Assembly: GCA_964585475.1 (NCBI GenBank)
Contig: CAZPDF010000005.1
Span: 3,323 to 67,322, forward strand
Direction: 5' to 3'
Length of the DNA: 64,000 nt
Source: an uncultured Candidatus Saccharibacteria bacterium
Lineage (GTDB): Bacteria > Patescibacteriota > Minisyncoccia > Sungbacterales > HO2-52-23
Shown here: positions 2,741-64,000 of the stretch, piece after piece
Numbering within the stretch: the stretch's first letter is position 1
Layout of the letters: each line of letters starts with the position of its first letter
Made by a program: the position numbers and the translations under genes
Notes under the pieces: generated by a model
Database searches by the model: none
Told to the model about the DNA's origin: nothing
Seen by the model: the letters and a program-made list of their open reading frames with translations, nothing else

Positions 2741-3262
2741 CTATTCTGACAAAATTTCGTGTACTAACCCCAGCATCAATGCGTCTGCGGAAGTGAGAAC
2801 CGTTTCAGAGAGCATCATATTGAGGAAGGCCTTCTTCTCAATTTTACCGCCAGTTTTCTCTGCTACGATTTCAGCCAGTTTATCCTCACAGTGCCTAAGG
2901 TCTTTTCCGAGCCCATTAATCGTCGCCGTGCTGATCCGCACATCCTTGAAGTGCCTTCCCATCTGGTGAATGTATAAAGTTGTGTGCGGAGTGACGAATC
3001 TTCTCTCACCCGCCAGCAGTATGAGCAAAGCGGATGAATCCACCGAGCCCGAGCCAATGGTATGAAGCTTAGGTTTCCACACCAACCTGACCAGATCGTA
3101 GAAAGAAAAGGCGATATCCGTAAATCCACCCTCGCTTGTCAGGATAAGGCGTATTACCTCGTCCTTATTTTCCTTTAACAGGTTGAGAATGCCCTTACTT
3201 ACTTCTTCGAAATTCTTTACGTTGACATCTCCAACCCACGGCAAGGTGCGGTCAAGATTCAT
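2741..3262 (-). CDS. ClpP-family (S14) serine protease-like protein
   Basis: TSEGGFTD and GSGSVDSSALLILLAG resemble the ClpP SPGG and active-site Ser motifs, and IHQ is present. At 173 aa it is shorter than canonical ClpP. Confidence 0.5.
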   Translation of the reverse strand: MNLDRTLPWVGDVNVKNFEEVSKGILNLLKENKDEVIRLILTSEGGFTDIAFSFYDLVRLVWKPKLHTIGSGSVDSSALLILLAGERRFVTPHTTLYIHQMGRHFKDVRISTATINGLGKDLRHCEDKLAEIVAEKTGGKIEKKAFLNMMLSETVLTSADALMLGLVHEILSE

Positions 3263-3345
3263 ATACCCCCCATTTGGTGCTAAATTTTTAAGAACAGTAA
3301 AACTAAAATAGCATAATATAGATTATTCGTCAAGCCATTTTTCTA

Positions 3346-4383
3346 CTATATGAACGTGGCTCCTAAAAGATCAGGATGCCCCAGAAGAAATGCCTGTGTC
3401 TCTATACTCTTTTTCCCCTCAAGTTTGAGTTTTTTTACAAGAAGTCCTCCTTTGCCGCACTTTACGAGTATCACGTCTTTTTGCTCGCCCGAGATATAAC
3501 CCGGAGAGCCGGCCGGAATATCATCTCGAACCGTATCTGCCTCCTCGATCTTAATGCGGCAGATTTTTTCCCCAGATGGCCAGATGGTCCACGTTCCTGG
3601 CCACGGATTGAAAGCGCGAACCATCCGCTCGATTTCTTCTGCTGGCCGCGACCAATTAATTCTGCCGTCGTCTTTTTTAAGAATTTTGGAATAAGTCGCT
3701 TGGGAATCGTTTTGTGGTACCGGCGTAATCTCTCTCCTGATCCATTTTGGTAGCGTTTCAATTAAAAGCTCTGCCCCCAATTTCGCCAGCTCATCGTGTA
3801 GGGTTTTGTAATTTGTAATTTGTAATTTGTAATTTTCCAATTGTCGCCATGCGACAATTGGACCGTGATCCATCTGTTCATCCACTTTTATGATCGTTAC
3901 TCCGGTCTCCGTATCGCCTTTAAGAATGGTGTATTGAATCGGCGAAGGCCCGCGCCAACGAGGGAGGAGGGAGGGATGAATGTTCAAGAACCCGAGTTTC
4001 GGAATTTCTAGAATCTCTCTTAGAATAATTTTTCCGTAAGCCGCTACAATACAAAGATCCGGCTGAAGTTCTGAAAATTCTTTCGCAAAAAAAGGATTGG
4101 ATTTCAACGTTTCCGGCTGAAAAACCGGAATTTTACCCCGCACCTTTTCTGAACTGCGCTTCGCGCGAGAATCTACTGGTTCAGAAAAGGTGCGGGGTTT
4201 ATGTTTCTCGGCAAATACCTTCACCGGCGGGGGAGTGAGAATCTGTTTTCGGCCAACCGGCTCATCAGGATTTGTTACCACGGCAACAATGTTACAGCCA
4301 GCTTCAATAAGCGCCTCAAGCGAGGGAAGCGCAAATTCCGGCGTACCCCAGAAAATTATTTTAATTTCTTTTACCTGCGTCAT
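3346..4383 (-). CDS. fmt: methionyl-tRNA formyltransferase
   Basis: IIFWGTPEFA...VVTNPDEPVGRK, NIHPSLLPRWRGPSPIQ and the C-terminal domain are present. It is paired with def. It contains two unusual in-frame inserts (see repeats). Confidence 0.9.
   Translation of the reverse strand: MTQVKEIKIIFWGTPEFALPSLEALIEAGCNIVAVVTNPDEPVGRKQILTPPPVKVFAEKHKPRTFSEPVDSRAKRSSEKVRGKIPVFQPETLKSNPFFAKEFSELQPDLCIVAAYGKIILREILEIPKLGFLNIHPSLLPRWRGPSPIQYTILKGDTETGVTIIKVDEQMDHGPIVAWRQLENYKLQITNYKTLHDELAKLGAELLIETLPKWIRREITPVPQNDSQATYSKILKKDDGRINWSRPAEEIERMVRAFNPWPGTWTIWPSGEKICRIKIEEADTVRDDIPAGSPGYISGEQKDVILVKCGKGGLLVKKLKLEGKKSIETQAFLLGHPDLLGATFI
3804..3838. repeat. heptanucleotide microsatellite (ATTTGTA)x4-5 inside fmt coding region
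   Basis: The sequence ttttgta atttgta atttgta atttgta attt is seen directly. It encodes NYKLQITNYK in the Fmt interdomain linker. Confidence 0.8.
4135..4198. repeat. perfect 20-bp-arm palindromic element inserted in-frame in fmt
   Basis: The arms accccgcaccttttctgaac / gttcagaaaaggtgcggggt surround a 24-nt loop. The element encodes the extra segment SEPVDSRAKRSSEKVRGKIP, absent from typical Fmt. Confidence 0.8.
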
Positions 4384-4550
4384 GTGACACTTTTTATATT
4401 TCTTCCCAACAACGTTCTTACATTCTCAAGTATGTTGGTATGTTTTTATCTCCCATGACACATTTTATATTTCTTTCTGGACTATTCGCTTATTCGTACG
4501 AATAAGCGAATAGTCTCCCACATCGCATGACACTTTTTATATTTTTTTTC
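4381..4550. repeat. def-fmt intergenic array: three ~25-bp direct repeats (catgacacWttttatatttctt) at ~73-bp spacing plus a perfect 32-bp palindrome (4482-4513)
   Basis: Copies lie at about 4381, 4454 and 4526. The first contains the fmt ATG. The palindrome is ctattcgcttattcgta|cgaataagcgaatag. Confidence 0.7.
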
Positions 4551-4555
4551 GCCAA

Positions 4556-5137
4556 TCACTTTGTCATGGAACGGCTCTCGATTATTCTCTCCGCTTTATC
4601 TATAAAAAGCGTCCCGTCCAGATGATCCAGTTCGTGCTGCACCACCCGGGAAAAAAAACGCGAGGCGCCGCGGGTGAATTTTTTGCCATGCTCATCATAT
4701 GCCACCACCGTGATTTTTTCGTGCCGCTTTACGGAGCCGAATTTCCCCGGGACCGAAAGGCACCCTTCTGCTCCATCCAGTTTGTTTTTGGACATCTTTT
4801 TTATTGTGGGATTTATGAATACATAATATTTCCATTCCCGCATTTCATACGGTTTTTCATTCTTTTCCGAGATGTCATCCTCGCGTTTGCGCTTCCATCC
4901 TGCCTTCTCCGCCTTATCGATCTCTTCCGCTTCTTCGGAGATGATAAAGATGCGCAGGGATTCTCCTATCTGCGGCGCGGCAAGTCCTACCCCGTCAGGA
5001 GTAATTTTGAGCGTTTCTTTCATATTCGAAATCAACCTTCGTATTTTGGGAGTAGCAAGGTCTTTAATTTGGACCCCACGAGCGACTTGACGAAGTGTGG
5101 CCTGCGGAGTTTTAATTATGGATAGCACCCTGGACAT
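4556..5137 (-). CDS. def: peptide deformylase
   Basis: GVGLAAPQIG, EGCLSVPG and HELDHLDG metal-binding motifs are present. An acidic/basic insert of about 40 aa (EEAEEIDKAEKAGWKRKREDD...) is also present. Confidence 0.9.
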   Translation of the reverse strand: MSRVLSIIKTPQATLRQVARGVQIKDLATPKIRRLISNMKETLKITPDGVGLAAPQIGESLRIFIISEEAEEIDKAEKAGWKRKREDDISEKNEKPYEMREWKYYVFINPTIKKMSKNKLDGAEGCLSVPGKFGSVKRHEKITVVAYDEHGKKFTRGASRFFSRVVQHELDHLDGTLFIDKAERIIESRSMTK

Positions 5138-5152
5138 AGTTAGGTGGAATAG

Positions 5153-5533
5153 ATGGATTTGTTAATTAATGCCCTTTTCGGACTCTTTCTTGTTTTTTGG
5201 GCCGTGTTTACGGCGAAATTCTATCTTGGTATCCTTTGGAAGTTACGGGAGAGGAATGTCCCGCTGCGTGGAAAAGTGATCGTGATGGTCGCGATGGGCT
5301 GGTTTTCTTGTCTCGGTTTACTTATCACCTTATTAGCGCTCGATTATTTTTCTATATTCTTTCCGCGCGATCCTATAGAGCGGTTCATCTATTTTGATCT
5401 TCTTGAACAAAAGTATGCGTTGGCGGTAGGAATTTATATGGCGGTTGCGTTCTATTTGAGTTATTGCCACCATTTTCCTAAGAAGTACCCCCCAAGCCAG
5501 ACAGCCCGAAAAGTTGATATTCACTATTTGTGA
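5153..5533 (+). CDS. hypothetical small integral membrane protein
   Basis: 126 aa with 3-4 hydrophobic helices. Confidence 0.35.
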   Translation: MDLLINALFGLFLVFWAVFTAKFYLGILWKLRERNVPLRGKVIVMVAMGWFSCLGLLITLLALDYFSIFFPRDPIERFIYFDLLEQKYALAVGIYMAVAFYLSYCHHFPKKYPPSQTARKVDIHYL

Positions 5534-5826
5534 GATTCTCGCGGAGATTTTTTTCTCCGCTTTTCCTTTTTTCTCTTGTTCAATTTTGCGCCTGGTCGTT
5601 TAGAGAGGCCTTTTAAAGCCGCAAAAAAATATTTCCCGCGCGCCTCCAGCGGCAAATCGTCTTTCTCAAGCACCCTCCGCGCGAGGGCCCGCAGGTCAGA
5701 TTCATAGTAAAGTTTAGCAATGCCAAGATAAGCTGCAAAGCGCTTGGGTTCCGACATCATGCGTGACACGTCATCGGCTAGGACGTGTTCCCGTGAGTGA
5801 AGGTGTGTATCCGGGGTCAATCTCAT
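5524..5826 (-). CDS. hypothetical protein with highly basic C-terminus
   Basis: 100 aa with a KLNKRKKEKRRKKSPRESHK tail. Confidence 0.3.
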   Translation of the reverse strand: MRLTPDTHLHSREHVLADDVSRMMSEPKRFAAYLGIAKLYYESDLRALARRVLEKDDLPLEARGKYFFAALKGLSKRPGAKLNKRKKEKRRKKSPRESHK

Positions 5827-5912
5827 ATCCTTACTATTTTATTACATTTCTTGACATTCGTAAATCGGTTGGATAACCTTGATTTAGATCTCTTTGCGGA
5901 GGGAGGAGAAGA

Positions 5913-6743
5913 ATGCCGACTTTTGTTATTGAACTGACGATGTTAAAATTCCTCTCTTCGGTTCTCCGCGATTTCGATTCAAGCTTCGTAATTGTGAATA
6001 GCTTGGACGATCCGCGTCTCTTGGTAAAAATTTTGGAAAGAGACGATTTCCCGTTGGGTACGGAGGTGATTACTTCGGAACTATCTGCGGTGTCCTGCGA
6101 AGAATTATGGAAAGAATTTAGTATCGACCGCAGAGATGTTGCAAAAGAACTTGCCAGTCGTGGTATCCCGGACGAATTAAAGTCCGTTTCGTTCAAGAAG
6201 CAGTTGAGATTGTGGCTCGGTATGCCGGTGATGGAAGGTGGGAAATGCTACAACGCTTATATTTTGCTTGACCGGGGAGAAATAAAATTCATTCACCGCA
6301 AGCGCCACATATACACGAAAGAGGAAAAGGCGATTTTTGATCGCCCTCGCATCTACGACGGTCATTTCGAAGGACGCACAGTTCTTATTTGCCACGAGCT
6401 TTTCGGCGCCTGGGATCCTACATGGCATAAATGCCATACCCCGGAAGTAAGAAGCAGGAAATCAAGGATAATTCTGGTTCCTGCCTACTGGGGTTGGGGG
6501 GCCGGCAACCCAAAAACACTAATACGGGCTGCACGGGAGGTTGTTTGGAGAGTTAAAGAGCCGAGTGACCGCAAGTCCGCCATGCACCCATCCGGTGCGC
6601 TTTTGCTTCTTGCCAATGCCAAGTGGGCTGCAGTGTTCGGGCCGCTTGAGAAAGGAAGACAAAAAGGCGGCTGTTACGCCCGTCTTGATAAACCCGGCTG
6701 GATCCGCGTTTCCCGAACCTCCCTTTCCACCAATGAGTTATAA
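5913..6743 (+). CDS. carbon-nitrogen hydrolase (nitrilase superfamily) family protein
   Basis: IHRKRHIYTKEE matches the nitrilase K-x-HL motif, and VLICHELFG matches the catalytic Cys motif. Confidence 0.55.
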   Translation: MPTFVIELTMLKFLSSVLRDFDSSFVIVNSLDDPRLLVKILERDDFPLGTEVITSELSAVSCEELWKEFSIDRRDVAKELASRGIPDELKSVSFKKQLRLWLGMPVMEGGKCYNAYILLDRGEIKFIHRKRHIYTKEEKAIFDRPRIYDGHFEGRTVLICHELFGAWDPTWHKCHTPEVRSRKSRIILVPAYWGWGAGNPKTLIRAAREVVWRVKEPSDRKSAMHPSGALLLLANAKWAAVFGPLEKGRQKGGCYARLDKPGWIRVSRTSLSTNEL

Positions 6744-11821: not shown

Positions 11822-11826
11822 AATAT

Positions 11827-11906
11827 CTTTACGAATTACGAATAAGTATGAAGGTATGAATAAAAATCCAGATTCGTAAATTCGTAGAAATTCGTATTTC
11901 GTAAAG
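11827..11906. repeat. MITE-like element with TIRs ctttacgaaWtacgaat...aattcgtatttcgtaaag (copy 1)
   Basis: It fills the acyP-rplI spacer and shares both termini with the 32068-32220 copy. Confidence 0.75.
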
Positions 11907-13669: not shown

Positions 13670-13710
13670 ACCACATAGTTATTTAGAGTTTAGGGTTTAG
13701 AATTTAGAGT
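13670..13710. repeat. tandem TTTAGA-type repeats (tttagagtttagggtttagaatttagagttt)
   Basis: The same motif recurs at 50048-50075, at 50178-50210, and in-frame at about 16650-16695. Confidence 0.7.
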
Positions 13711-13713
13711 TTT

Positions 13714-23563: not shown

Positions 23564-23599
23564 TCACTAAAGTTTTGACGATCGTCAAAACTTTAGTGA
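23564..23599. repeat. perfect 36-bp palindrome tcactaaagttttgacga|tcgtcaaaactttagtga
   Basis: Seen directly between the terminator and the gltX 3' end. Confidence 0.8.
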
Positions 23600-27885: not shown

Positions 27886-29221
27886 TTAAATTATGAACTG
27901 CCGAAACGAATTGTGCTCCGCGGTCAAACTCATTTAAAAAAAGTCCAAAACTTGCCGCCCCGGGAGACAGCAATACATAATCCCCTCTTTCGGCAAGCCC
28001 GTATGCTAGTCGAACGGCATCCTGCATTCTCGGCGCGGTATGAAGCGCCTGATCCCGCTTCCCCGATAGATATTTTTTTAGCTTATCTGTTGCGTTTCCC
28101 GGCAAAAATATTGTGATATCTACCTTTTCTTTGATAGTATCAGCCAGATCAGAAAAGTTAAGTTTTTTGTCCGATCCGCCGCAAATAAGAATTAATTTAT
28201 GCCCTTTTGAAATTTTTTCTCGGAAGCGTTTTAGAGCTGCCATTGTTGCTTCTGGAATGGTTGCGGTCGTATCATTGATAAAATGAACCCCATCCATAAT
28301 CGCTATTTGCTCTTCTCGGCCCTCCAGGCCCCTGAAGGAGCGCAATATTCTTTTCACGGTTGCCTCGGGCACGGAAAAGTGTTTGGCAACCGCCAAGGCG
28401 ATGGCCACGGATGCACGGTAGTGCGCCCCGAGTTTCTCATCCACCAGCGGTATAAATTTTTTTGGCAGGCGTGCCCAAATTATGCGTGAGCGGGCACTTT
28501 GCGCCATGGCTCGGACGGTTTTATCGCCCGGATTCGCAAAAAAGTAATCCCCCTTTTTCTGGTAAGAAAAGACTGTTTTCTTCGCACGCAGATATTCAGC
28601 AAGTGAACCATGCCAATTCAGGTGATCACGGAAAATATTCGTGAGGACGGCGATAGGCGGGCTCTTTCTTTCTTGCGCAAGGTCTTGCAGTTGGAAACTC
28701 GATAATTCAAGTACTGCCCAGTCACCCGCTTTCATCAGCGGAAGAAATTCAAGTACTGATTTGCGTATGTTTCCGCCGAGAAACACCCGTCGCCCTTTTT
28801 TAGCGCGTAGAAACCTCCAGATGAGGAAGGCAGTGGTTGATTTTCCTCGGGTGCCGGTTATTCCGATAATTTTCCCCGGGCATAAATTGAAAAAAATTCC
28901 AACGTCGCTCGTTATTGGAATTCTATGCGATCTTGCTAATTTTAAAAAGGGAGAGCTTGGCGGAACGCCTGGGTTTTTAATAATTAAGTCCTGCGATAAA
29001 AAATCTTTGCGGCGATGGCGGCCCAACACATAGTGAATGCGGCGGTAACGTGAAAGTTGTCGTATGGATTGGCGGAGAGATTTCGGGTTTCGTAGGTCGG
29101 TAACGGTAATTTCGGCCCCCAAGTTAGCTAAAAATTTAGCTGTGCCCGCTCCTCCGCCATGGAGTCCTAGCCCCATCACTAATATGCGCTTTCCGCGAAA
29201 ATCTATCGTACGCCGTTTCAT
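27857..29221 (-). CDS. murD: UDP-N-acetylmuramoylalanine--D-glutamate ligase
   Basis: ILVMGLGLHGGG and GITGTRGKSTT P-loop with Mur ligase domains. Confidence 0.9.
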   Translation of the reverse strand: MKRRTIDFRGKRILVMGLGLHGGGAGTAKFLANLGAEITVTDLRNPKSLRQSIRQLSRYRRIHYVLGRHRRKDFLSQDLIIKNPGVPPSSPFLKLARSHRIPITSDVGIFFNLCPGKIIGITGTRGKSTTAFLIWRFLRAKKGRRVFLGGNIRKSVLEFLPLMKAGDWAVLELSSFQLQDLAQERKSPPIAVLTNIFRDHLNWHGSLAEYLRAKKTVFSYQKKGDYFFANPGDKTVRAMAQSARSRIIWARLPKKFIPLVDEKLGAHYRASVAIALAVAKHFSVPEATVKRILRSFRGLEGREEQIAIMDGVHFINDTTATIPEATMAALKRFREKISKGHKLILICGGSDKKLNFSDLADTIKEKVDITIFLPGNATDKLKKYLSGKRDQALHTAPRMQDAVRLAYGLAERGDYVLLSPGAASFGLFLNEFDRGAQFVSAVHNLRRSSPNSFS

Positions 29222-30792
29222 GTGCGTTTAATGACATGGCCAGCACGTATTCCGGTGTACCTTCCGTTCTCAACTGCCACTTTGCCGTTAACCAGTACCC
29301 ACTCAATCCCTGAAGGATAGCGAAAGGGGTTTTTATATGTTGCCCGGTCCCGGATGAGCCGCGGATCAAATACAGCGATGTCGGCAAAATTGCCTTTCTT
29401 AAGAACGCCCCGCCCTTTAATGCCGATTCTTTCTGCCGGCCGTGAGGCGATTTTTTGTATCGCTTCTTCCGCCGAAAGAACCTTCAAGTCGTTTACAAAA
29501 TGGTGCCAAAAATGAGAAAATGCGCCGAAGGAACGCGGATGCACGAGATTACCGGATTTTTGCTCTTCCTGCGAATATCCAGCGCCATCAGACGCGACGA
29601 TCGAGTTGGGGTATGCTACGGCGAGGGCTGTATTTTTTGTTGAAAGGGTTTTGCCGACAATTTTTACGCGGCCTTCATTCGCGCGGATGGTATCAAGGAT
29701 GGCTTCGGCAGGCCGAAGGCCTGAATGTTCGGCAATTTCTGCGAGTGTTTTGCCGACTATGGAATTCATTTTTGCCGAGACAATAAGAATTTTATCATAA
29801 TGGAGGGTGGATGCCTCGATGGCTTCAATTATCCTTTCTCGCTCGTCAGGTTTCCTGATTTTTTGAAATAGTTCCCGGAAACCGTTTTCCCGCGCCCAAG
29901 ACGGTACTAGAAGGTACAAAAGTGAGCCCGTGGTGCTATACGGAGACACGTCAAAGGTAATATCCGCTCCGGAGGTACTGGCGTTTTGTATCATCTCAAG
30001 GGCTTTCGGGAGAGCCGGCCACGTCTTTCTACCTATGGCTTTCAAGTGGCTGATTTCTACCGGAATTGCGGCCTCGCGCGAAATTCTAATAACCTCATTG
30101 ATGCTTGCAATTAGTTCTCTCCCCTCGGAGCGGAGATGGATTTTTAAGAGTCCCCCCTGTTCTTTAAGAGGCGCGCATAAATCAAGTAGTTCTTCCGTGG
30201 CGGCAACCCGCTCGTGGCCGTAGGCAAGACCGAGCGAGAATCCAAATGCTCCTTCTTTCAACCCCTCGCTAAGAAGAAGTTTTACCCGCGCTCTCTCATC
30301 TATATTCAGGGATCGTGATTCCCCTCCAATGACTCCGCGCCGTAGCGTTCCGTGTCCCACCAATGTTCCAAAGTTAATCCCGAGCCGCAGTTTTGCAACC
30401 TCATCCAGAAATTCGCCAACCCGAGTCCAATTTACATTAATCTCTGATGGATTGGCCCATTTGCGCACCGCCTCAAGCGCATGGCTACTGCCGAGAGGCG
30501 CCAAAGATGCTCCGCAATTTCCTCCGATTATCGTTGTCACCCCCTGCATAAGAAGCGACTCCTGTGCCGGATATTTAAATAGCGTAAGATGGGTATCCGA
30601 ATGGTTGGTAATATCAATGAAACCGGGGGTCACGTATTTTCCGGCAGCATCCACGATTATTTTTGCTTGAGGAGGATCAAGCGAGCCGATGGCAGCGATT
30701 TCTTTGCCGTTTATGCCAACATCAACCGTCCGCATCTTGGTTTTGGTGCCGTCGAGCACCGCCCCGCCTTTGATGATAATGTCGTAAGCCAT
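29218..30792 (-). CDS. amidohydrolase family protein (N-acyl-D-amino-acid deacylase / D-aminoacylase-like)
   Basis: MAYDIIIKGGAVLDG...GFIDITNHSD metal-dependent hydrolase N-terminus and a composite domain. It sits inside the dcw cluster. Confidence 0.75.
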   Translation of the reverse strand: MAYDIIIKGGAVLDGTKTKMRTVDVGINGKEIAAIGSLDPPQAKIIVDAAGKYVTPGFIDITNHSDTHLTLFKYPAQESLLMQGVTTIIGGNCGASLAPLGSSHALEAVRKWANPSEINVNWTRVGEFLDEVAKLRLGINFGTLVGHGTLRRGVIGGESRSLNIDERARVKLLLSEGLKEGAFGFSLGLAYGHERVAATEELLDLCAPLKEQGGLLKIHLRSEGRELIASINEVIRISREAAIPVEISHLKAIGRKTWPALPKALEMIQNASTSGADITFDVSPYSTTGSLLYLLVPSWARENGFRELFQKIRKPDERERIIEAIEASTLHYDKILIVSAKMNSIVGKTLAEIAEHSGLRPAEAILDTIRANEGRVKIVGKTLSTKNTALAVAYPNSIVASDGAGYSQEEQKSGNLVHPRSFGAFSHFWHHFVNDLKVLSAEEAIQKIASRPAERIGIKGRGVLKKGNFADIAVFDPRLIRDRATYKNPFRYPSGIEWVLVNGKVAVENGRYTGIRAGHVIKRT

Positions 30793-30883: not shown

Positions 30884-32065
30884 TTAGCGCCCTATCAACG
30901 CAATGGCCATACCTATAATTGCGGCCACTACGCTAATCACCCAAAATCTCATCGTGACTTTATACGGAGGCCATCCCAGGGCCTCAAAATGATGATGGAG
31001 GGGCGCTATAAGAAACACCTTTTTTCCGCGAAAACGCTTGGATGCGAATTGGATGATGTCAGACACAACTTCAGCCATCAGTATAAGGCCAATAATGGGC
31101 AGAACCACGACCGAATCGGTAAGAAAGGCAACTACAGTGAGAGAGGTGGTAAGTCCGAGGATGCCCGATTCCCCCATATAGAAGCGGGCCGGAGGGATAT
31201 TGAACCAAAGAAAGGCAAGAATGGCTCCGAGAATGACGGCGGCAAATGCGGCCACATCAATCTGTCCTCTGAAAAATGCTATACCCGCATAGGCCGCAAA
31301 AGCGGAGGCAAAAACCCCGCCTGCCAAACCGTCAATGCCATCCACGATGCTGGAAGAAAAAAGCAGGATCATGGTGAATATAAAAAGCGGTATGTACCAA
31401 AGGCCTAGATAAAGATCTCCGAAGCCGGGGATATAAATGGCCCGCCAATCAAGCTTGAAATAAAACCACCAGGCGCCGGCAGCGGCAATGAGAAATACGA
31501 CCAAAAGCCGGTGGCGGAATTTTACCCCCCCACCTTCCTGGATGCCTTGCCTCCATGGCTTAAGAACGGCTAGGAGCTTGCGAGTAAAAGAAATTTTGGG
31601 TGTGACTTCGTTTGAAAAGGTGGGGGGGTTTATTCCCCCGGCAACATATCCGCCGCGTCCGTACACTTGCAAGAGATCGTCAACTAATCCTAAAACGGAA
31701 GCGGCGAGAAGTATAAATAACGGAAGCCATGTCTGATTTCTTGAAAGAAAATTTGCTTTATCCCAAAATGAACTATCGGTGGCGTAGGCCACAAGCCAGA
31801 TAATAAGCGCCAAGGCAATGGTGGTTGCCCAGATGAGCACCCCGCCCAGACGCGGCACGCTAACCTCGCGATCTTTATGCAGGGCCGCAAACAAAGGGGT
31901 TTGAGATCCGTCCGGAGACAGCGTACGCACTTCTTTCCGCCAGAGCTTATGGGTATAGAGAAATTTGGTAAGAAGCGGCGTCCAAAGAATGGCCAAGACG
32001 AAAGATACGGCGGAGAGGCCGAATACTTTGATGACGCTTACAATGTTGTTAACTTGGGACTCCAT
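30884..32065 (-). CDS. mraY: phospho-N-acetylmuramoyl-pentapeptide-transferase
   Basis: Polytopic with a DGIDGLAGG motif. The N-terminal region has the typical cytoplasmic loop. Confidence 0.9.
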   Translation of the reverse strand: MESQVNNIVSVIKVFGLSAVSFVLAILWTPLLTKFLYTHKLWRKEVRTLSPDGSQTPLFAALHKDREVSVPRLGGVLIWATTIALALIIWLVAYATDSSFWDKANFLSRNQTWLPLFILLAASVLGLVDDLLQVYGRGGYVAGGINPPTFSNEVTPKISFTRKLLAVLKPWRQGIQEGGGVKFRHRLLVVFLIAAAGAWWFYFKLDWRAIYIPGFGDLYLGLWYIPLFIFTMILLFSSSIVDGIDGLAGGVFASAFAAYAGIAFFRGQIDVAAFAAVILGAILAFLWFNIPPARFYMGESGILGLTTSLTVVAFLTDSVVVLPIIGLILMAEVVSDIIQFASKRFRGKKVFLIAPLHHHFEALGWPPYKVTMRFWVISVVAAIIGMAIALIGR

Positions 32066-32067
32066 AT

Positions 32068-32220
32068 CTTTACGAAATACGAATTAGTACGAATTTACGA
32101 ATTCTCCGGAACCGACATACGAATAGATTAACACGGTTCCGGTTACGAATAGTTCGTACCCGAACGCCCAGATGCGTATACGGCGTTAGGTACATCCGTA
32201 AAAATTCGTATTTCGTAAAG
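32068..32220. repeat. MITE-like element with TIRs ctttacgaaatacgaatt / aattcgtatttcgtaaag (copy 2)
   Basis: Perfect 18-bp TIRs. The internal ccggaaccg...cggttccgg IR exactly fills the mraY-dacA spacer. It shares termini with the 11827-11906 copy. Confidence 0.8.
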
Positions 32221-33189
32221 CTAAAAACTTTCTTCGAGCCACTGAATCAGTTTTCTTCCGTCTTCGAATCTATCCTCCGATCCAAGAATGATGATGGCGG
32301 CGGCCCCGCGCGGCCTGACAGGATAGATAAGAAGCAGTGCCCCTTTCGCTTCATCGGTGAAGCCGGTTTTTCCTCCAAGGATGGCCGGAAACTCTTTCAG
32401 AAGGATATTGGTATTGAACAGAGAATATTCGCGTCCGGATACGGAATAGATTTTTGTTTCTATATTTCGTGAAATTTCCCAGATTTGGCGGTGATTATAC
32501 CACGCGTATTCCGCGAGGTCTGCCAAGTTCTCCACTGTGCTAAGGTGACTCTCTTCGTCCAAGCCGGTCGGATTCCGGAAGGAGGAATTTCTCATTCCAA
32601 GCACACGAGCGCGGTTATTCATCAGATCGACAAAGGTTTTAATCCGATCTTCAAACGTGCCGCCGCCCTTATTTTCGCCCGCGGCTTCAGCCAAGGCCAG
32701 GGCGGCGTCGTTAGCGGAATTGATCAAAGCAAGGCGTATGGCATCATCACGGAAAAAAATTTCTCCGGCCGGTGCCGCGCTCAATTTCGGCTCGGCACGA
32801 AGTTTCGAGTCATTTGAGAGACGGATTTTATCGGTCGCCTCCAATTCCTCTCGCGCAACAGCGGCAGTCAAAATTTTGGTCAAACTTGCCGGGGCAAGAC
32901 GTTTTTCCGGACGCCGTGACAGAAGCGGGCGAATATCTCCGAAGAGACGGACCAAATACGCTTCTGCATCTATATTCGGCTCCGGGATATTTTTTTTCAC
33001 CGTTGGAGTTTCTTCCGCCGTTGCGACGGCTGTGTGACGCGATTCTCTAGGCAGGTTTTCGTCTCTTGAGTAGTAGTTGAAACCTCCGTGGAGTGCGGAG
33101 AGAAGAACAGGCACGCTTATAAGAAGCCCCAGAGTTTCGATTATAATCCGGCGTTTTTCAAATGGATCGCGAGGCACCAAAAAAACCAT
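32221..33189 (-). CDS. D-alanyl-D-alanine carboxypeptidase (S11 family serine peptidase)
   Basis: SxxK (ASLTK), SxN (SAND) and KTG (KTGFT) motifs with an N-terminal TM. Confidence 0.8.
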   Translation of the reverse strand: MVFLVPRDPFEKRRIIIETLGLLISVPVLLSALHGGFNYYSRDENLPRESRHTAVATAEETPTVKKNIPEPNIDAEAYLVRLFGDIRPLLSRRPEKRLAPASLTKILTAAVAREELEATDKIRLSNDSKLRAEPKLSAAPAGEIFFRDDAIRLALINSANDAALALAEAAGENKGGGTFEDRIKTFVDLMNNRARVLGMRNSSFRNPTGLDEESHLSTVENLADLAEYAWYNHRQIWEISRNIETKIYSVSGREYSLFNTNILLKEFPAILGGKTGFTDEAKGALLLIYPVRPRGAAAIIILGSEDRFEDGRKLIQWLEESF

Positions 33190-34591: not shown

Positions 34592-35986
34592 TTATTTCCT
34601 TTTGGTTTTAATTTCAAGGCCGAGCTCCTTAAGCTGGCTCGCATCAATTTCGGATGGAGCATCCATCATAAGATCCCGGGCATCCCCTGTTTTTGGAAAA
34701 GCGATGACTTCGCGAATATTTGGTTCACCCGCGAGCACCATAATTAACCGGTCGATCCCTGGGGCAATTCCTCCGTGCGGAGGAACGCCATATTCAAACG
34801 CCTCTAACATATGCCCGAATTTTTTCCTGATATTTTCTTTGACATTACCCATGATTTCAAAGACCGTCTCGAGCATCTTGGGATCATGGATTCTTATAGA
34901 TCCGCCGCCTATCTCATATCCGTTTAGAACAAAGTCATATTGCTCGGCTAATTGTCCCTCTGGGTTCCGCCGTAATTCCTCCGGATCTTTGGTTTTTGGT
35001 GCGGTAAATGGATGGTGCACCGCGTCCCATCTCTTTTCTTCTTTTTTCCACTCAAAAACCGGAAAGTCAACTACGAAAAGAAAAGCGAGCTCATTAGGGT
35101 CGTTTTTATTCTTTCTTAAATCCGGCTTATCGGTTCCGTATTTTTCCATGACTTCCCCGTAGGATGGGCGCGGGAACGGTATGGAGGTGATATGTTTTTC
35201 GGGACAGACCCTTTTTACAATATTTATGTAAAGATCCTCGGTGAGATTTAGTATCTCTTCTTGGGTGGTGAAACTCATCTCCAAGTCGAGTTGCGTAAAC
35301 TCCGGCTGTCGGTCCCCCCTCGTATCTTCGTCACGGAAACAACGCGGGATCTGAAAATAACGCTCGATACCAGCCACCATAAGAAGCTGCTTGTATTGCT
35401 GCGGGGATTGCGGCAAGGCGTAAAACTTTCCCGGATAGAGACGCGAAGGCACCACATAATCACGTGCACCCTCGGGAGTGGATTTCGTGATAATCGGAGT
35501 CTCAACTTCAATAAAGTCATTTTCGTGAAGGTATTGACGTATAAAAGAAACTACTTTATCTCGCAAAATCAGATTTTTTTTCAACCGGTCGCGGCGAAGA
35601 TCCAAATAACGGTACTTTAAGCGATTCTCCTCCCCTATCTCATAGCCTTCAGTGTCCAGAGCAAAAGGAGGAGTTTTTGACTCATTTAAAATTGTGAGTT
35701 TTTTTGCCTCTATCTCAATCGTTCCGGTTGGAAGGTCGGGATTTTCCATATTCTCGGGTCGTTCTTTTACCGTCCCCTCCACGGAGACAACCCATTCCGG
35801 ACGCAGGCGACTTGCCTCCTCAAGTAGAGAGGCATTTTTGGGATTAAAAACTACTTGCACTATCCCCCATCGATCACGAAGATCAATGAAGATAAGCTTT
35901 CCATGATCGCGTCTCGTTTGCACCCAACCCATAAGGGTAACTAATTCACCCATTTTATTTACCGTATCCTTAGTCAGTGTTCGCAT
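34592..35986 (-). CDS. aspS: aspartyl-tRNA synthetase (archaeal/eukaryal-type, probably non-discriminating)
   Basis: OB-fold N-terminus, QSPQQYKQLLM, class II motif 2 FRDEDTRGDRQPEFTQLD, and motif 3 GGGSIRIHD. The 464-aa length fits the short form. Confidence 0.9.
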   Translation of the reverse strand: MRTLTKDTVNKMGELVTLMGWVQTRRDHGKLIFIDLRDRWGIVQVVFNPKNASLLEEASRLRPEWVVSVEGTVKERPENMENPDLPTGTIEIEAKKLTILNESKTPPFALDTEGYEIGEENRLKYRYLDLRRDRLKKNLILRDKVVSFIRQYLHENDFIEVETPIITKSTPEGARDYVVPSRLYPGKFYALPQSPQQYKQLLMVAGIERYFQIPRCFRDEDTRGDRQPEFTQLDLEMSFTTQEEILNLTEDLYINIVKRVCPEKHITSIPFPRPSYGEVMEKYGTDKPDLRKNKNDPNELAFLFVVDFPVFEWKKEEKRWDAVHHPFTAPKTKDPEELRRNPEGQLAEQYDFVLNGYEIGGGSIRIHDPKMLETVFEIMGNVKENIRKKFGHMLEAFEYGVPPHGGIAPGIDRLIMVLAGEPNIREVIAFPKTGDARDLMMDAPSEIDASQLKELGLEIKTKRK

Positions 35987-48391: not shown

Positions 48392-50215
<1,824 letters not shown>

Positions 50216-50512: not shown

Positions 50513-50587
50513 GAAGCTTCTTAGCTTTTTTAGCTTCTTAGCTTTTTAAGGTGGAGTTCCTAAAAAGCCAATTCCTAACAAGCTATT

Positions 50588-50614
50588 TTAGCACTCTTGG
50601 TGTTCGACTGCTAA
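50588..50614. promoter_or_regulatory. CIRCE operator (HrcA binding site) upstream of groES
   Basis: TTAGCACTC-N9-GACTGCTAA has one mismatch to the consensus TTAGCACTC-N9-GAGTGCTAA. Confidence 0.8.
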
Positions 50615-55229: not shown

Positions 55230-55871
55230 TCAGCGAGACGGGATACGAATTGGTACGGGCTGGGGGCGAGGCATGAATACGTTCCCTAATGAGGCCGCAA
55301 AACTTTCTAGCCATTTCCGCGCTTTTGATTTTGTAGCAGGAGGGAGATCGCAGGACCCAAAGTAAAGCGTAATTACTAACCAAAATAGGAAACTCGCGCC
55401 TAAAACCTTAAAAAAGAGCGGAACATTCGGTGTAGCCGTAGAGATTAGAAAGAACATCTTTAATATGAATGGCGGAATCACTAAGCTACAGAGAATTCTT
55501 ACCGGCGCTAAATCGAATTTAAGGTGATTTGCAAGCGATCGCATTTGTAGATCCTGCACTGTTTTTTCAAGCCGATTTACCCACCGGTATAATAAAATCC
55601 CCGGAACGAGTTCGATAAGTAAACTAGTGGATACGTCTAAATGTTTAGGCTCGTATAGTAAAACCCCGGCAAAATAAACGAGTAAACTAAGCGAGAAGAA
55701 TAGGGCGCTTTGTTTCGCGAACCAGAAACAATCTTGCCCAAATATTTTGTGCCACCAGCAACTGAAGGATTCGAACTTGTTAAGGATCCATTGATCGAAA
55801 GCCATGAGCAAGAGGATCTCCTTGCTGAATTGAGATGTCCACACTATACTCCTAGATATGCTTAATGTCAA
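55230..55871 (-). CDS. hypothetical integral membrane protein
   Basis: 213-aa ORF with about five TM helices. The start is uncertain. Confidence 0.35.
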   Translation of the reverse strand: MTLSISRSIVWTSQFSKEILLLMAFDQWILNKFESFSCWWHKIFGQDCFWFAKQSALFFSLSLLVYFAGVLLYEPKHLDVSTSLLIELVPGILLYRWVNRLEKTVQDLQMRSLANHLKFDLAPVRILCSLVIPPFILKMFFLISTATPNVPLFFKVLGASFLFWLVITLYFGSCDLPPATKSKARKWLESFAASLGNVFMPRPQPVPIRIPSR

Positions 55872-57327
55872 GAAATGGAAGAGGGCGCCGAATACACCCG
55901 GCGTTTATGCATTCCAAAAAGGTTCCGCACAACTTTATATAGGCAAAGCCGTAAATCTTAAAAAGCGGGTTGCTTCATATTTCCGGAAAAATATAAGCGG
56001 CAAAACGCGCGAACTTCTAAAAGAAGCGACAAAACTTGATTGGATCGAAACCGCGTCTGAAATAGAGGCCTTTCTAAAAGAGGCGGAACTCATTAAAAAA
56101 TACCGCCCCAAATATAATATCCTGATGCGGGATGACAAAAATTATTTTTATGTGGGGATTACCCAAGAGCAGTTTCCGAGAATTTTTCTAACCCATCAGC
56201 CCAACCAATATCTTTCGAGTGGAGCGAAGCGAAATCGAGAAAAATTCCATAAGGTAAATTCTCGACTTCGCTCGAACAGTAATTTTACTGGTCCTTTTAC
56301 GAGCGGAAATGCGCTGAAATCAGTCTTGCGGCTTCTGCGCCGTATTTTTCCCTACTGCACTTGCAAAACGTCGCACAGGCGGCCGTGTTTGAATACGGAG
56401 ATTGGGCGATGCCCTGGCTACTGTTGTCTCCAAGGCGAGCTACAACACACCAACATTCTCAAGTATGTTGGTGTGTTGTCAGAGCGAAAAAAAGAATACG
56501 GGACAAATATAAAAAATATAATTGCCGTGCTTTGCGGGAAAAAGAAGCGGATTCGAACGGAATTGAGACGCTCGATGAACGAGGCGGCAAAGAGGGAAGA
56601 CTTTGAAAAAGCGGCAAAAATTAGGGACCAACTCAATGGACTTGAAAATATATTTTCGCATCGGAAATTTTTAGAGGTTGAACCTCCCGTTGGGGGTTCA
56701 ACCTCCCCGAGACTACTATGGCCCAGGGTCGAAAAGTACATCCGGAGTCTCCTAGGAATAAAAAAGCCCATTTCTCGAGTTGAGGGCTATGACATTTCAA
56801 ATATATCGGGGGCCGAGGCGACCGGCTCAATGGTGGTATTTATTGAAGGGAAACCGGTAAAATCCGAGTACCGTAAATTCAAAATTAAGACCGTCCGGGG
56901 CATAAGCGATGTGGGTATGTTACGAGAAGTGGTCGCCCGGCGAATGGCACATGAGGAATGGCAATATCCGGACCTCATGTTAATTGATGGGGGGAAACCG
57001 CAGTTCAATGCGATACTTAGTACGCTCTCTAATCAGTCACGAATAAAAAGATCTCGAATAATCTCGAATGCCCAGCATAAAATTCGAGATATTTCGGGTA
57101 TGAATTCGGGACCGATTAAAGGGATTAAAGTGGCGGCGCTCGCTAAACGCGAGGAGGAATTATATACTGAAGGCGCGGGAAGGCCTATCCGTCTTTCCTC
57201 ACTCCCTGAAAATACTGCCAATTTCTTGAAACGCGTGCGGGACGAATCGCACCGCTTCGCCAAAAAATATCATCATAAGTTACGCGAAATAAGCTTTCGC
57301 AGTAATGCAGAAAAAAGCGAAATCTGA
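55858..57327 (+). CDS. uvrC: excinuclease ABC subunit C (short form lacking C-terminal HhH)
   Basis: GIY-YIG N-terminus (GVYAFQKGSAQLYIGKAVNLKKR), a Cys cluster, and a C-terminal RNase-H-like endonuclease domain. It contains an in-frame palindromic insert. Confidence 0.8.
   Translation: MLNVKKWKRAPNTPGVYAFQKGSAQLYIGKAVNLKKRVASYFRKNISGKTRELLKEATKLDWIETASEIEAFLKEAELIKKYRPKYNILMRDDKNYFYVGITQEQFPRIFLTHQPNQYLSSGAKRNREKFHKVNSRLRSNSNFTGPFTSGNALKSVLRLLRRIFPYCTCKTSHRRPCLNTEIGRCPGYCCLQGELQHTNILKYVGVLSERKKEYGTNIKNIIAVLCGKKKRIRTELRRSMNEAAKREDFEKAAKIRDQLNGLENIFSHRKFLEVEPPVGGSTSPRLLWPRVEKYIRSLLGIKKPISRVEGYDISNISGAEATGSMVVFIEGKPVKSEYRKFKIKTVRGISDVGMLREVVARRMAHEEWQYPDLMLIDGGKPQFNAILSTLSNQSRIKRSRIISNAQHKIRDISGMNSGPIKGIKVAALAKREEELYTEGAGRPIRLSSLPENTANFLKRVRDESHRFAKKYHHKLREISFRSNAEKSEI
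56214..56284. repeat. palindromic repeat copy C inserted in-frame in uvrC (gagtggagcgaagcgaaatcgag...ctcgacttcgctcgaacagtaa)
   Basis: It shares gctcgaacagtaa with copy D and gagcgaagcga with copies A and B. It encodes LSSGAKRNREKFHKVNSRLRSNS. Confidence 0.6.
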
Positions 57328-57457
57328 AAAACGTGCGGCCAAGAAAAAGCGTAGAAAGTACCCCATAAGCGGGCATTCGGTTTTTCTCATTCAAAAACTG
57401 CAACACAAAACGCGTCGGTGATCACCGACGCGTTTTGTAAAGTTTTATGGTTTAATG

Positions 57458-59926: not shown

Positions 59927-59972
59927 AAAAGAATCCTAGTCAGAATCCTAGGATTCTGACTAGGATTCTTTT
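59927..59972. repeat. perfect 46-bp palindrome aaaagaatcctagtcagaatccta|ggattctgactaggattctttt
   Basis: Seen directly, immediately 3' of the dnaK stop. It may act as a bidirectional terminator or attenuator. Confidence 0.8.
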
Positions 59973-59983
59973 GATGTTCCGCT

Positions 59984-61876
59984 CTACTCCTTTTTATCTT
60001 CGTCTTTTTTCTTCTCTTCAAATTCTGCCTCTTTGACGTCTCCCTCTTTTTTCTCTCCTTCGCCGCCCGCACCCGCCTGTTTATATAGTACCTCGCCAAT
60101 CTTTTGCAGTGAAGTTGAAAGATCCTGGCTCGCACGCTTAATCGCCTCGCCATCGCTGTTGTCTTTCACGCTTTTCAAAGCGCTGATTTTTGCCTCGATT
60201 TCGTTTTTTAGTTCAGCGCTGACCTTATCTCCCGCATCTCTCAATGCCTTCTCAGCAGTATAAATAAGCGTATCCGCTATGTTTTTACCCTCAATCAGTT
60301 CCCGCTTCTTGCGATCCTCCTCCGCATGAAGTTCGGCATCCTTCTTCATCTTCTCAATTTCCTCCTTGGAGAGAGAAGTTGAGGCCTCAATTCTAACCGA
60401 CTGCTCTTTTCCGGTGGCCTTGTCCCTGGCCTTTACGGATAAGACACCGTTCGCATCAATATCAAACGCCACCTCAACTTGAGGCATGCCTCTTGGAGCT
60501 GTCGGAATCCCATCTAAAATGAATCTTGCCAGAGTTTTATTGTTTTCAGCCATTTCGCGCTCGCCCTGCAAAACATGAATTTCAACCGAGGTTTGATTGT
60601 CGGCTGCGGTTGAAAAAACTTGGGATTTTGCCGTAGGAACGGTGGTATTTTTCTCAATGATTTTGGTCATAACACCGCCAAGGGTTTCGATTCCGAGCGA
60701 TAAGGGGGTCACATCCAGAAGCAATACGTCTTTTACTTCTCCCTGCAATATACCCGCTTGGATCGCAGCGCCGATCGCCACCACCTCATCCGGGTTGATA
60801 GTACGATTGGGTTCTTTGCCAACAAGCTTTTTTACTGCATCAATTATGGCCGGCATCCGGGTTTGCCCTCCCACCAATATTATCTCGTCAATGTCGGCCA
60901 TGGGAAAACCGGAGTCCTTGATGACTTGCCTGGTAATTTCGACTGATTTATCAATCATATCTCTTACTAATTCCTCCAGTTTTGCCCGGCTGAATTTCAT
61001 CACCAGATGCTTAGGACCGGATTCGTCGGAAGTTATGAAGGGAAGATTGATTTCTGTCTCGGGGGTGGTGGAAAGTTCATGTTTTGCTTTTTCGGCAGAT
61101 TCTTTAAGGCGTTGGAGCGCCAGAGTATCTTTGGATAAATCAATTCCCTGATCCTTCTTAAACTCCTCCACGATCCATTTGATTATCCGCTGATCAAAAT
61201 CGTCTCCTCCCAGATGCGTATCGCCGCCTACTGCTTTTACTTCGATCGTATCTTCGGTAACTTCCAGCACCGAGAGGTCAAAAGTTCCTCCCCCGAAGTC
61301 GTACACTACGATTTGTTCGTTCTTTTTCTTGTTGAATCCGTAAGCCAGAGCCGCCGCAGTCGGCTCATTCAAGATCCGGCGTACTTTAAATCCGGCAATT
61401 TCTCCGGCGGCCTGCGTGGCTTTTCTTTGCGAGTCATCAAAATAAGCCGGCACGGTGATCACCGCCTCGGTTATTTTTTCCCCGAGCTTATCCTCGGCAT
61501 CATGCTTCAATTTTTGGAGCACCATGGCGGAGATTTCTTCAGGGCGATATGCCTTGTCGCCCATTTTTATCTCAACTCCGTTGTTGGCCGTCTCTTTTAA
61601 TTCATACGGAAGCCACTCTTTATCGCGCTTTACTTCCTTATCGCTAAATTTCCGTCCGATAAGGCGTTTAACGGAAAAAAGGGTGTTCTTTGGATTGGTC
61701 ACGGCCTGCCTTTTGGCTAAAAGGCCCGCTAGGCGATCGCCAGATTTTGAGATCGCGACAATTGAGGGAGTCGTACGATTCCCCTCTTTACTTTCTATTA
61801 TTTTCGGTTCGCCATGTTCAATCACGGCCATGGCGGAATTGGTAGTGCCGAGATCGATTCCTAAGATTTTGGGCAT
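59984..61876 (-). CDS. dnaK: molecular chaperone DnaK (Hsp70)
   Basis: [18 protein letters not shown], a substrate-binding domain, and an acidic C-terminal tail. Confidence 0.95.
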
Positions 61877-62697: not shown

Positions 62698-63237
62698 CTA
62701 TTTCTCTTTAGCTATCCTCACTCTTGCCGGGCGAAGCACTCGCTCGCGAAAGTAATAACCTCTCTGCACTACGTCCCCAATGCTTCCGGCTTCGAACTCC
62801 GATTCTATTTCGCCGATACTTTCGTGCTTTTCGGGATCGAATCTCTCCCCTTTCTCCACTTTCATCACTTCAAGCCCCCGCTTTCTTAAAATATCTTCAA
62901 ATTGCGAACGTATCAAAAGCACCCCCCTCTCTGTTTCCGGCTCGAGTCCATGCCCTACTGCCAGATCAAAACTGTCTAATATAGGTAAAACTTCTTCGAT
63001 AAAACCAGTGGTTACGAACCGCGCCAGATCTTCAAATCTTTTCCCTTCGTCCTTTCTATAATTTATTAAGTCGGCCTTGGCTCTCTGCCAACCCTCAAGA
63101 TAGTCTTTGCGCTCCGCATCGCATTTCTTTAAATCTTCTTTTGTCTTTTTAATCTTTTTCTGCAATTCACTCGCATCTCCTTCCTCATCAGGGACTAACT
63201 CGATATCGCTGGTGTCTTCATTTTTTTCTTCATTCAT
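62698..63237 (-). CDS. grpE: nucleotide exchange factor GrpE
   Basis: Acidic N-terminus, a coiled-coil, and C-terminal GrpE beta domain motifs (VLPILDSFD, VVQRGY). Confidence 0.9.
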   Translation of the reverse strand: MNEEKNEDTSDIELVPDEEGDASELQKKIKKTKEDLKKCDAERKDYLEGWQRAKADLINYRKDEGKRFEDLARFVTTGFIEEVLPILDSFDLAVGHGLEPETERGVLLIRSQFEDILRKRGLEVMKVEKGERFDPEKHESIGEIESEFEAGSIGDVVQRGYYFRERVLRPARVRIAKEK

Positions 63238-63962: not shown

Positions 63963-63989
63963 TTAGCACTCCCATGTCAAGAGTGCTAA
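63963..63989. promoter_or_regulatory. CIRCE operator upstream of hrcA-grpE-dnaK
   Basis: Perfect TTAGCACTC-N9-GAGTGCTAA. Confidence 0.85.
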
Positions 63990-64000
63990 TATTGACAGTT

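Follow-up and report, generated by a model that had tools for sequence, protein, structure and literature searches.

Why should two genes that lie nearly back to back in related bacteria be held apart by 172 nt of repeated and palindromic sequence? The question is raised by a 64 kb stretch of a metagenome contig (CAZPDF010000005.1; the whole stretch is hereafter the window, and coordinates count from its first letter), in which def, the gene for peptide deformylase (4556..5137, minus strand; Pfam Pep_deformylase, 2.3e-45; protein end ...SMTK-TGA), is followed directly and on the same strand by fmt, the gene for methionyl-tRNA formyltransferase (3346..4383, minus strand; Pfam Formyl_trans_N, 3e-36, and Formyl_trans_C, 4e-24). 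This operon order is the same in relatives. The host is a Sungbacteria-type member of the Candidate Phyla Radiation (CPR): among 7947 Fmt homologues, the nearest are ~63% identical and come from Sungbacteria. The spacer between the two genes (4384..4555, minus strand) is longer than in all relatives examined. In more than 25 relatives, and in most of the 34 loci with def upstream, the gap measures -23 to +29 nt, and the few longer gaps contain unrelated hairpins. An initial reading of the DNA from its letters alone (the sequence-only reading) was thus right to single out a 172-bp spacer as abnormal for this operon, and the comparison of spacer lengths that it called for returned relatives without the long spacer, rather than relatives that keep its length and lack its repeats.

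We lean towards the following answer: the def-fmt junction was triplicated locally, with palindromes between the copies, and one of these palindromes, PAL36, is a putative ArsR-type operator and hairpin that uncouples fmt. An assembly artefact is the first alternative to be weighed, since the source is a metagenome and repeats can be mis-joined or expanded in such contigs. However, a 281-nt region is identical in an independent European Nucleotide Archive assembly (ERZ27284378, contig k139_9950; our locus L007), on a contig of different length, so the spacer is not an accident of assembly; moreover, the sequence between the repeats differs among the three units, which are therefore not one unit collapsed or expanded. 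We give this explanation practically no credence.

Three copies of one gene junction

The spacer contains three direct repeats, here named from fmt towards def: R1 (4381..4405, minus strand; GAAGAAATATAAAAAGTGTCACATG), R2 (4454..4477, minus strand; GAAAGAAATATAAAATGTGTCATG, then GGAGATAAAAACAT), and R3 (4526..4550, minus strand; GAAAAAAAATATAAAAAGTGTCATG). They are 24-25 nt each, 81-100% identical over 26 nt, and spaced 71 and 72 nt from start to start, slightly less than the ~73 bp first estimated. The coding-strand form of the repeat is GAAAGAAATATAAAAAGTGTCA(CA)TG, with an ATG at the end of each copy. The copy that holds the fmt start was described as the last of the three, which is true in the direction of transcription; in window coordinates it is the first, as the genes lie on the minus strand. 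Only R1, which contains the working ATG (4383..4381), is followed by fmt: R1 is the working fmt start, and R2 and R3 are relics. Allowing up to 3 mismatches, a search of the window recovers exactly these three copies, against 0.00 expected from shuffles, and the 15-mer core of the repeat has no further good copy there. The 25-mer is thus not a ubiquitous AT-rich sequence, and with only three copies in 64 kb we also rejected the repeat as a dispersed motif.

What the repeat is becomes clear from relatives, in which the same motif occurs singly at the fmt start (L002, AGAAATATAAAAAGCATCATATG; L005, AAAAATAAAAGGTGTCACATG; L008, GAAATATAAGAGGTGTCACATG; L009, GAAAGAAATCTAAAAAGTGTCTTATG). In these genomes, the junction segment consists of the last def codons, a TAA stop, ~10 nt, and the fmt ATG. 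The junction is tight—the two genes overlap in L001 and L006, while L009 leaves 10 nt between them, L002 20 nt, L008 27 nt, and L003 29 nt. Because the def frames of L009 (...E K E I TAA) and L003 (...V D E I TAA) stop within the motif, its conserved TATAA represents the last def codons plus the stop (GAA ATA TAA, E I stop) and not a -10 box. The def genes of the window and of L008 both end ...MTK-TGA, and R3 occupies the position orthologous to the single L008 junction. The spacer consists, in short, of three copies of the native def-stop/fmt-start junction, with one foreign palindrome between each pair of copies: PAL36 (4480..4515) between R3 and R2, and HP (4409..4446), a hairpin of 38 nt that has decayed and belongs to a second palindrome family, between R2 and R1. 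The suggestion that decayed repeat elements had inserted here therefore stands for the two hairpins, both members of dispersed palindrome families, but not for the repeats, which are native junction.

Traces of the order of events survive in the copies themselves. Within GGAGATAAAAACAT, 3' of the R2 ATG, the 11-mer GATAAAAACAT equals fmt codons 4-7 of L009 (11/11; L009 Fmt starts MTQDKNI), and R2 thus retains a relic of the old Fmt N-terminus (M..DKNI). R3 and R2 have in common a derived TGGGAGA after the ATG; since R3 shares this decayed sequence of R2, the duplication that gave R3 and R2 is later than that which gave R2 and R1. Each relic ATG opens an upstream open reading frame (uORF) of 12 codons. 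That of R3, uORF3 (4490..4528, minus strand; MRCGRLFAYSYE), runs to a TAA inside PAL36, where its end ...YSYE (TCG TAC GAA TAA, SYE-stop) is the same as at the ends of the regulator genes of other genomes described below. The second, uORF2 (4418..4456, minus strand; MGDKNIPTYLRM*), is the Fmt N-terminus relic fused to HP, and its stop lies inside HP. Elsewhere, in L003, 20 nt of the def-fmt junction have been cleanly duplicated in tandem without any hairpin, and the junction is therefore prone to duplicate unaided. Among the homologues found, no Fmt relative exceeds ~63% identity, and intermediate junction states are thus not seen.

The repeats had initially been taken for promoter- or initiation-like modules. 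Initiation-region sequence they certainly are, but they are not promoters: TATAA is def codons plus stop, and the promoter-prediction scan that had been proposed, now run together with a terminator scan, predicts no site in the spacer. Could the spacer nonetheless be a purpose-built array, either of tandem promoters or leaderless starts (TATAAA, 7 nt, ATG), or of 12-codon uORFs whose re-initiation relay sets fmt output? A -10-like box stands 6-9 nt before the ATG of many window genes, the TATAAA-N7-ATG geometry is found in both R2 and R3, PAL36 falls at the would-be -35 of R2, much as related boxes do at regulator promoters, and both uORFs are exactly 12 codons long, with stop-to-start gaps across the spacer of 27, 33, and 34 nt. 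On the other hand, the TATAA of the repeat is already accounted for by the terminal def codons and stop of relatives, the hexamer lacks the conserved final T, the promoter scan is negative, no relative examined has such an array, what uORF2 encodes is not a conserved peptide but a degenerate copy of the Fmt N-terminus, and 12 open codons arise by chance about half the time. We consider an array of this kind improbable. Nor did searches for other elements in the spacer succeed: an Rfam scan of the whole window at gathering thresholds finds two tRNAs only and no family for the spacer, a permissive scan of 3000-6000 with Rfam 15 returns only chance microRNA matches (18 bits, against thresholds of 88-110), and an intrinsic terminator (a GC-rich stem before a T-run) was rejected, the scan showing no terminator-like site in the spacer and CAGAAAG following PAL36 on the coding strand. 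The folding of the spacer RNA is, by comparison, strong (z = -5.6 against shuffles), with the PAL36 hairpin dominant.

Two observations on gene starts in the window may be added. A TATAAT-like box ending 6-9 nt 5' of the ATG, without a Shine-Dalgarno sequence, suggests that genes so equipped yield leaderless transcripts (examples are 29218-30792(-), 34592-35986(-), 55858(+), and 59984-61876(-)); other window genes have clear GGAGG sites. At 5137-5153, the def start is only 15 nt from the divergent start of a 126-aa membrane-like open reading frame (ORF), and it follows either that each promoter is contained in the coding region of the other gene or that the starts are mis-called.

A palindromic box and an ArsR/SmtB-family gene

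Between R3 and R2, the sequence-only reading had noticed a perfect palindrome of 32 bp; the palindrome is there, and extends to 36 bp (GACTATTCGCTTATTCGT/ACGAATAAGCGAATAGTC; PAL36). It belongs to what we define here as a box family, whose members have the core CTTATTCGTACGAATAAG in the middle of an extended palindrome, perfect or nearly so, with arms of the CGAATA(A)G type. In general, they can be written (C[T]TATTCG)n-TA-(CGAATA[A]G)n, and a version with n = 1 exists too. A census of the central 18-mer in one genome per species, a set that does not include the source genome, gave 101 copies in 96 stretches of 67 genomes, against roughly 9 expected. PAL36 combines the exact core with the commonest outer arms, CTATTCG/CGAATAG (18/101 copies), and has one exact copy in the window; elsewhere, exact-core copies number at most 4 per genome. 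Nearly all core-bearing species genomes (61/67) are CPR or unclassified. By stretch, 76/96 are labelled CPR, from Saccharibacteria and many classes of Parcubacteria, 5/96 are unclassified, and 6/96, no more than chance would give, are clearly non-CPR; the remaining 9/96 come from three metagenome-assembled genomes (MAGs) of roughly 1 Mb labelled Gammaproteobacteria, a doubtful label, and one of the three has a CPR-type regulator next to the box.

Beyond the core, the palindrome continues by a median of 7 nt and a maximum of 16 nt, and the outer arms can change while staying symmetric (CTATTCT/AGAATAG, TAYACCC/GGGTRTA, ACATCC/GGATGT). These arms are paired at 73.9% of positions, compared to 63.3% in shuffles and ~40% in slid controls, and their covariation score of 0.314, versus 0.141, was equalled by 0/500 shuffles. 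No target-site duplication was found at the 101 copies, and the core has no match in IMG/VR or in phage and plasmid collections.

Apart from one small gene, no genes recur beside the boxes. That gene was passed over by the clustering of neighbours, in which the minimum ORF length was 100 aa whereas the product measures about 85-100 aa, and was recognised from a locus in Uhrbacteria (L124; JACQMO010000003.1, 2777-6420), where eight box variants in 7 kb include two tandem box-gene-box modules. The module gene encodes an 84-aa winged-helix protein matching Pfam HTH_5 and HTH_20, and the two paralogous regulators, 63% identical, each have a box half-site of their own, CGAATG or CGAATA; the modules also share a divergent promoter-like segment, GGGGCATATATATACCGCTGAAGGAAAA. 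An ArsR-like gene adjoins the box at 21/96 loci, in 19 genomes, and the architecture is constant: the upstream box lies 0-100 nt from the gene and overlaps or abuts a -10-like box located 6-9 nt 5' of the ATG, and the downstream box, at the stop codon or directly after it, in several cases encodes the last residues of the regulator (...NSYE*, ...SLL*). Neighbours of the box-gene-box module differ between genomes. The association also holds in the opposite direction, as three loci picked by protein similarity alone (P0155, P0209, and P0232) all proved to have box variants both up- and downstream (3/3 loci, 6/6 positions; CTCTAATTCG[C/T]GCGAATAG.CGAATAG).

The protein matches the ArsR/SmtB subfamily model NF033788 of NCBIfam (71 bits, cut-off 55), with no match at an equivalog cut-off, and its nearest solved structures are Lmo1102, an Rv-type ArsR protein, HlyU, PagR, and NolR. 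At E <= 1e-10, the family comprises 427 proteins, which their sources name ArsR/SmtB regulators of Patescibacteria. Across genomes, then, an inverted repeat recurs in the promoter of its cognate regulator, as expected of an operator, and by this association the box is most likely the operator of an ArsR/SmtB-family regulator; the PAL36 copy in the window is a solo box. A regulatory role for the spacer, first proposed on account of its repeats, does not follow from these but is revived by the palindrome and its tie to an ArsR-family regulator. We found no description of a CPR-wide box-regulator pair in open-access papers and preprints, and it appears undescribed. The pair matters because CPR bacteria (Patescibacteria) have very few regulators and their gene control is almost uncharted; a near-constant box in about 60 genomes of many CPR classes, bracketing one small ArsR-family gene, is a concrete and testable entry point.

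Boxes are found next to fmt in other CPR genomes as well. A box lies directly behind fmt at two other loci, L110 (32 nt after the stop) and L179 (3 nt after the stop), where ~0.2 cases were expected, and in L179, a Kaiserbacterium, an HP-like hairpin follows 20 nt after the box, repeating the order of the window, PAL then HP. Read by eye rather than by Pfam, the genes 3' of solo boxes are varied, with several for tRNA or translation functions and others for cell-wall, protease, and nucleotide functions. In a Saccharibacteria-labelled MAG (L132), an identical 45-nt segment follows each of two boxes (at 2201 and 4794); it holds a strong sigma-70-like promoter (TTGACA-17-TATACA/TATAGA), making the box part of a longer repeated promoter unit.

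Within the window, the half-site CGAAT(A) occurs in a further setting. The observation that the palindrome core recurs in a TACGAAT element was correct: TACGAATAAG is found at 11837, within an inverted array of TACGAAT heptamers (11823..11906) just upstream of rplI. A second element with the same termini (ATATCTTTACGAA... / ...ATTCGTATTTCGTAAAG) lies upstream of a GT4 (MraY-like) gene (32064..32223). That these elements are related to PAL36 through the half-site is plausible, if not proven, and they may be further predicted binding arrays of the same regulator, with the box half-site as their unit.

How palindromes came to lie between the copies

HP, the second palindrome of the spacer, has an intact counterpart in the window, a perfect 38-nt hairpin (56442..56479) that adds ~13 codons to uvrC (55858-57327); the two agree at 23/24 positions across the 5' arm and loop, and related copies occur in L179 and L095. 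Three of the four HP-family copies seen are within 220 nt of a box, and the HP core has no match in IMG/VR. The L095 copy is a perfect 34-nt palindrome (L095:2915-2950) within an MsrB-like ORF adjoining the regulator gene, and in the uORF2 frame it reads FNIPTFCRMLECC, versus NIPTYLRM.

If insertion of these elements had itself produced the flanking repeats, similar repeats should accompany them elsewhere—the direct repeats would then be long target-site duplications, of the kind a CRISPR-integrase-like activity would leave (a "neo-CRISPR", posed with repeats of ~25-35 nt and inserts of 36-38 nt), or the whole a miniature TIGR array. The regular 71/72 period, the near-equal lengths of the unrelated inserts (36 and 38 nt), and the presence of the same repeat on both sides of each insert would fit such a system. 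No long flanking repeat accompanies any other box copy, however (0/100). Among 18 hairpin sites in the window (17 strong ones plus the decayed HP), only the two at def-fmt have a flanking repeat, and a survey of 0.95 Mb of CPR DNA with 317 strong hairpins shows the flanking pair of PAL36 (21/23) to be unique, the next best being 14/16. The duplications at the junction are therefore probably local events, not made by the elements. Further evidence points the same way: the uvrC copy of HP adds ~13 codons only, the repeat is a native gene junction with a start codon, the would-be spacers are dispersed palindromes, and the neighbours are housekeeping genes, with no cas, tas, or transposase genes near (a Pfam search of 19 ORFs, most of them no more than about 10 kb from the locus, returned no cas gene). 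A CRISPR array was thus rejected, as the repeat includes the fmt ATG, the inserts are dispersed palindromes, and no cas genes are nearby. TIGR arrays have at least five units of 36 nt, with edge and loop repeats of 8-12 nt, box C/D motifs, and two 9-nt spacers, and lie next to a tas gene that encodes a Nop domain (PMC12045711); as none of these features is seen at the def-fmt spacer, a TIGR array was likewise rejected. An origin in either kind of system appears very remote.

The duplications would instead have arisen by tandem duplication or template switching at the junction. Along a first route, a tandem duplication like that in L003 would have come first, the palindromes then lodging in the new dispensable DNA that it had made in a very compact genome; along a second, template switching would have copied a hairpin at the joint. 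Of the two duplications, the one with HP at the joint came first, and the one with PAL36 at the joint followed. PAL36 is perfectly symmetric, while R2 is distinguished from R3 by 3 positions and an indel of 6 nt, which mildly favours duplication first and palindrome later, or selection on the box. However they came about, the copies would make the spacer a rare fossil record of a tightly coupled junction that tolerates insertions by duplication.

Unrelated hairpins have been inserted independently at the def-fmt junction of several Parcubacteria lineages (L024, L025, L076, L090, and L179:395-430), and no junction duplication flanks those at L179:395-430 or in the def-fmt gaps of L024, L025, L076, and L090; in L025, a hairpin arm provides the AGGAGGGG Shine-Dalgarno sequence for fmt.

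How would the spacer work? PAL36 would be the operator of an ArsR-type regulator encoded outside the window, and would also fold, as RNA or DNA, into a highly stable hairpin. Lying between the two genes in bound or folded form, it would uncouple the expression of fmt from that of def, or throttle it relative to def. The tight def-fmt coupling of relatives would be broken by the two hairpins, probably with the help of the bound regulator, and read-through into fmt may be throttled as well. Fmt would still be made, owing to an intact junction copy downstream of each insert, and its initiation would rely on R1, either by re-initiation or by independent entry.

Several points weigh against this reading. 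The regulator gene was not found by a hidden Markov model search of the six-frame ORFs of the window and L007. Box-bearing gaps are convergent in 18/44 cases (41%), compared to 56/417 (13%) of the other gaps at the same loci (Fisher odds ratio 4.5, P = 2.5e-5), and 18/95 copies lie within called genes, a pattern that fits elements resembling repetitive extragenic palindromes (REPs) or terminators better than classical operators. Neither the clustering of neighbours nor the genes downstream of solo boxes reveal a conserved set of targets, and the covariation of the outer arms indicates that hairpin formation constrains the sequence in addition to recognition by a protein. As for the triplication, the symmetry of PAL36, set against the divergence of R2 and R3, may mean that insertion and duplication were not simultaneous, and the equal 71/72 period may be a coincidence of 36- and 38-nt inserts with similar duplicated lengths.

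Much of this evidence speaks for another account, in which the palindromes are selfish or structural REP-like hairpins that bind no regulator here and are tolerated in duplicated, dispensable DNA, and in which the link to the ArsR-like gene reflects a box-gene-box unit that moves, or regulates itself, as a small module. Besides the enrichment of boxes in convergent gaps, their presence inside genes, their covarying arms, and the lack of a conserved regulon, it would explain why module neighbours vary by genome, and it suits a genome rich in strong hairpins (17 in the window, compared to 1-9 in shuffles), several of them inside fmt and uvrC. REP families are species-specific, and near-identity across classes is not expected of them, whereas a near-identical 32-36 nt sequence here spans CPR classes. 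The fixed architecture, with a box over the regulator's own -10 box and another at its stop codon, the separate box variant of each paralogous regulator, the absence of box copies from viral, phage, and plasmid collections, and the lack of target-site duplications also speak against it. We regard this account as possible but less probable than a local triplication with a putative operator, and the box does act like a REP-like hairpin at gene ends as well, giving it a dual character.

In a bolder and rather unlikely proposal, the 32-36 bp site of a CPR-wide ArsR/SmtB regulator is a "mobile operator" that spreads as a hairpin and captures genes, fmt among them. The box would enter intergenic gaps, gene ends, and reading frames, and so bring new genes under the control of the regulator; at def-fmt, the insertions would have survived by means of the duplicated junction, leaving behind a relay of short upstream ORFs. 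On this view, the boxes behind fmt in a Kaiserbacterium and a Liptonbacterium hint at formylation (of the initiator tRNA) as a recurrent target.

Hairpins elsewhere in the window form a varied background. Three strong ones lie within the uvrC frame (56228-56272, 56442-56479, and 57047-57094). Inside fmt, a 64-nt hairpin element (4135-4198; ACCCCGCACCTTTT...AAAAGGTGCGGGGT) adds 22 residues in frame, which are missing from 16/17 aligned orthologues; a second copy, with compensatory changes in its arms, is found in a GSDH-like gene immediately beyond the window (L007:6881-6944), and a shorter version lies at the same fmt position in a 63%-identical relative (L005:299-332). Also in fmt, four tandem GTAATTT repeats followed by a 27-nt hairpin (3808-3862) encode NYKLQITNYK in the hypervariable Fmt linker, where several relatives have similar KLQxT insertions. 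In-frame palindromic insertions thus seem common in this genome, essential genes such as fmt and uvrC included, much as the Rickettsia palindromic elements (RPEs) are in Rickettsia. Arrays of TTTAGAA/TTTAGGG-type heptamers, also as inverted pairs, occur just upstream of CTP synthase and of a 551-aa gene at 48392-50047 (arrays at 13674-13713 and 50057-50199), and heptamer-repeat hairpins resembling them occupy the def-fmt gaps of the Parcubacteria loci L037, L052, and L080. Perfect palindromes of 36, 34, and 46 bp mark gene 3' ends (23564-23599, 57405-57438, and 59927-59972), two of them with A-run/T-run flanks like those of bidirectional terminators. Finally, two CIRCE-like elements of the form TTAGCACTC-N9-GAGTGCTAA, which is the consensus of the HrcA operator CIRCE (controlling inverted repeat of chaperone expression), are found at 50585-50614 and 63963-63992, the second upstream of a gene at 63230-63940.

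The locus among known systems

How unusual is this arrangement? In its combination of a ~90-aa winged-helix gene with a palindrome over its own promoter, the box-regulator pair resembles autoregulated ArsR/SmtB repressors such as SmtB, CzrA, CadC, NolR, HlyU, and PagR. Unlike the operators of these proteins, the box is 32-36 bp long with doubled half-sites and has a second copy at the stop codon; its solo copies occur for the most part at the 3' ends of genes, and some even within genes, with outer arms that covary as those of a hairpin do. A palindromic site that stays near-constant across very distant lineages recalls the CIRCE sites of HrcA, but whereas CIRCE stands upstream of a fixed chaperone regulon, the box has no conserved set of targets.

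As dispersed hairpins at gene 3' ends and in convergent gaps, sometimes in frame within genes, the boxes are comparable to REPs and bacterial interspersed mosaic elements, to the Correia elements of Neisseria, and to RPEs. They differ from all of these in being low-copy, conserved across classes, free of target-site duplications, and tied to a regulator gene, and no associated transposase (RAYT or TnpA) of the kind that marks REPs and miniature inverted-repeat transposable elements is found at the box copies.

The spacer itself shares with CRISPR and TIGR arrays its short repeats, regular period, and unrelated equal-length sequences between repeats, but it has three repeats only, the repeat is a gene junction, and the inserts are dispersed palindromes. 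Parallels are also offered by tandem and template-switch duplications, which are known to carry a palindrome or templated insert at the join, and hairpin-forming inserts stall replication. The succession of duplicated segment, short foreign insert, and duplicated segment is the same; what sets the locus apart from known join-point duplications is that this happened twice at a single gene junction of 25-45 nt, with two unrelated palindromes. The local structure is in this sense a new combination of known processes, namely junction duplication and the insertion of palindromic elements.

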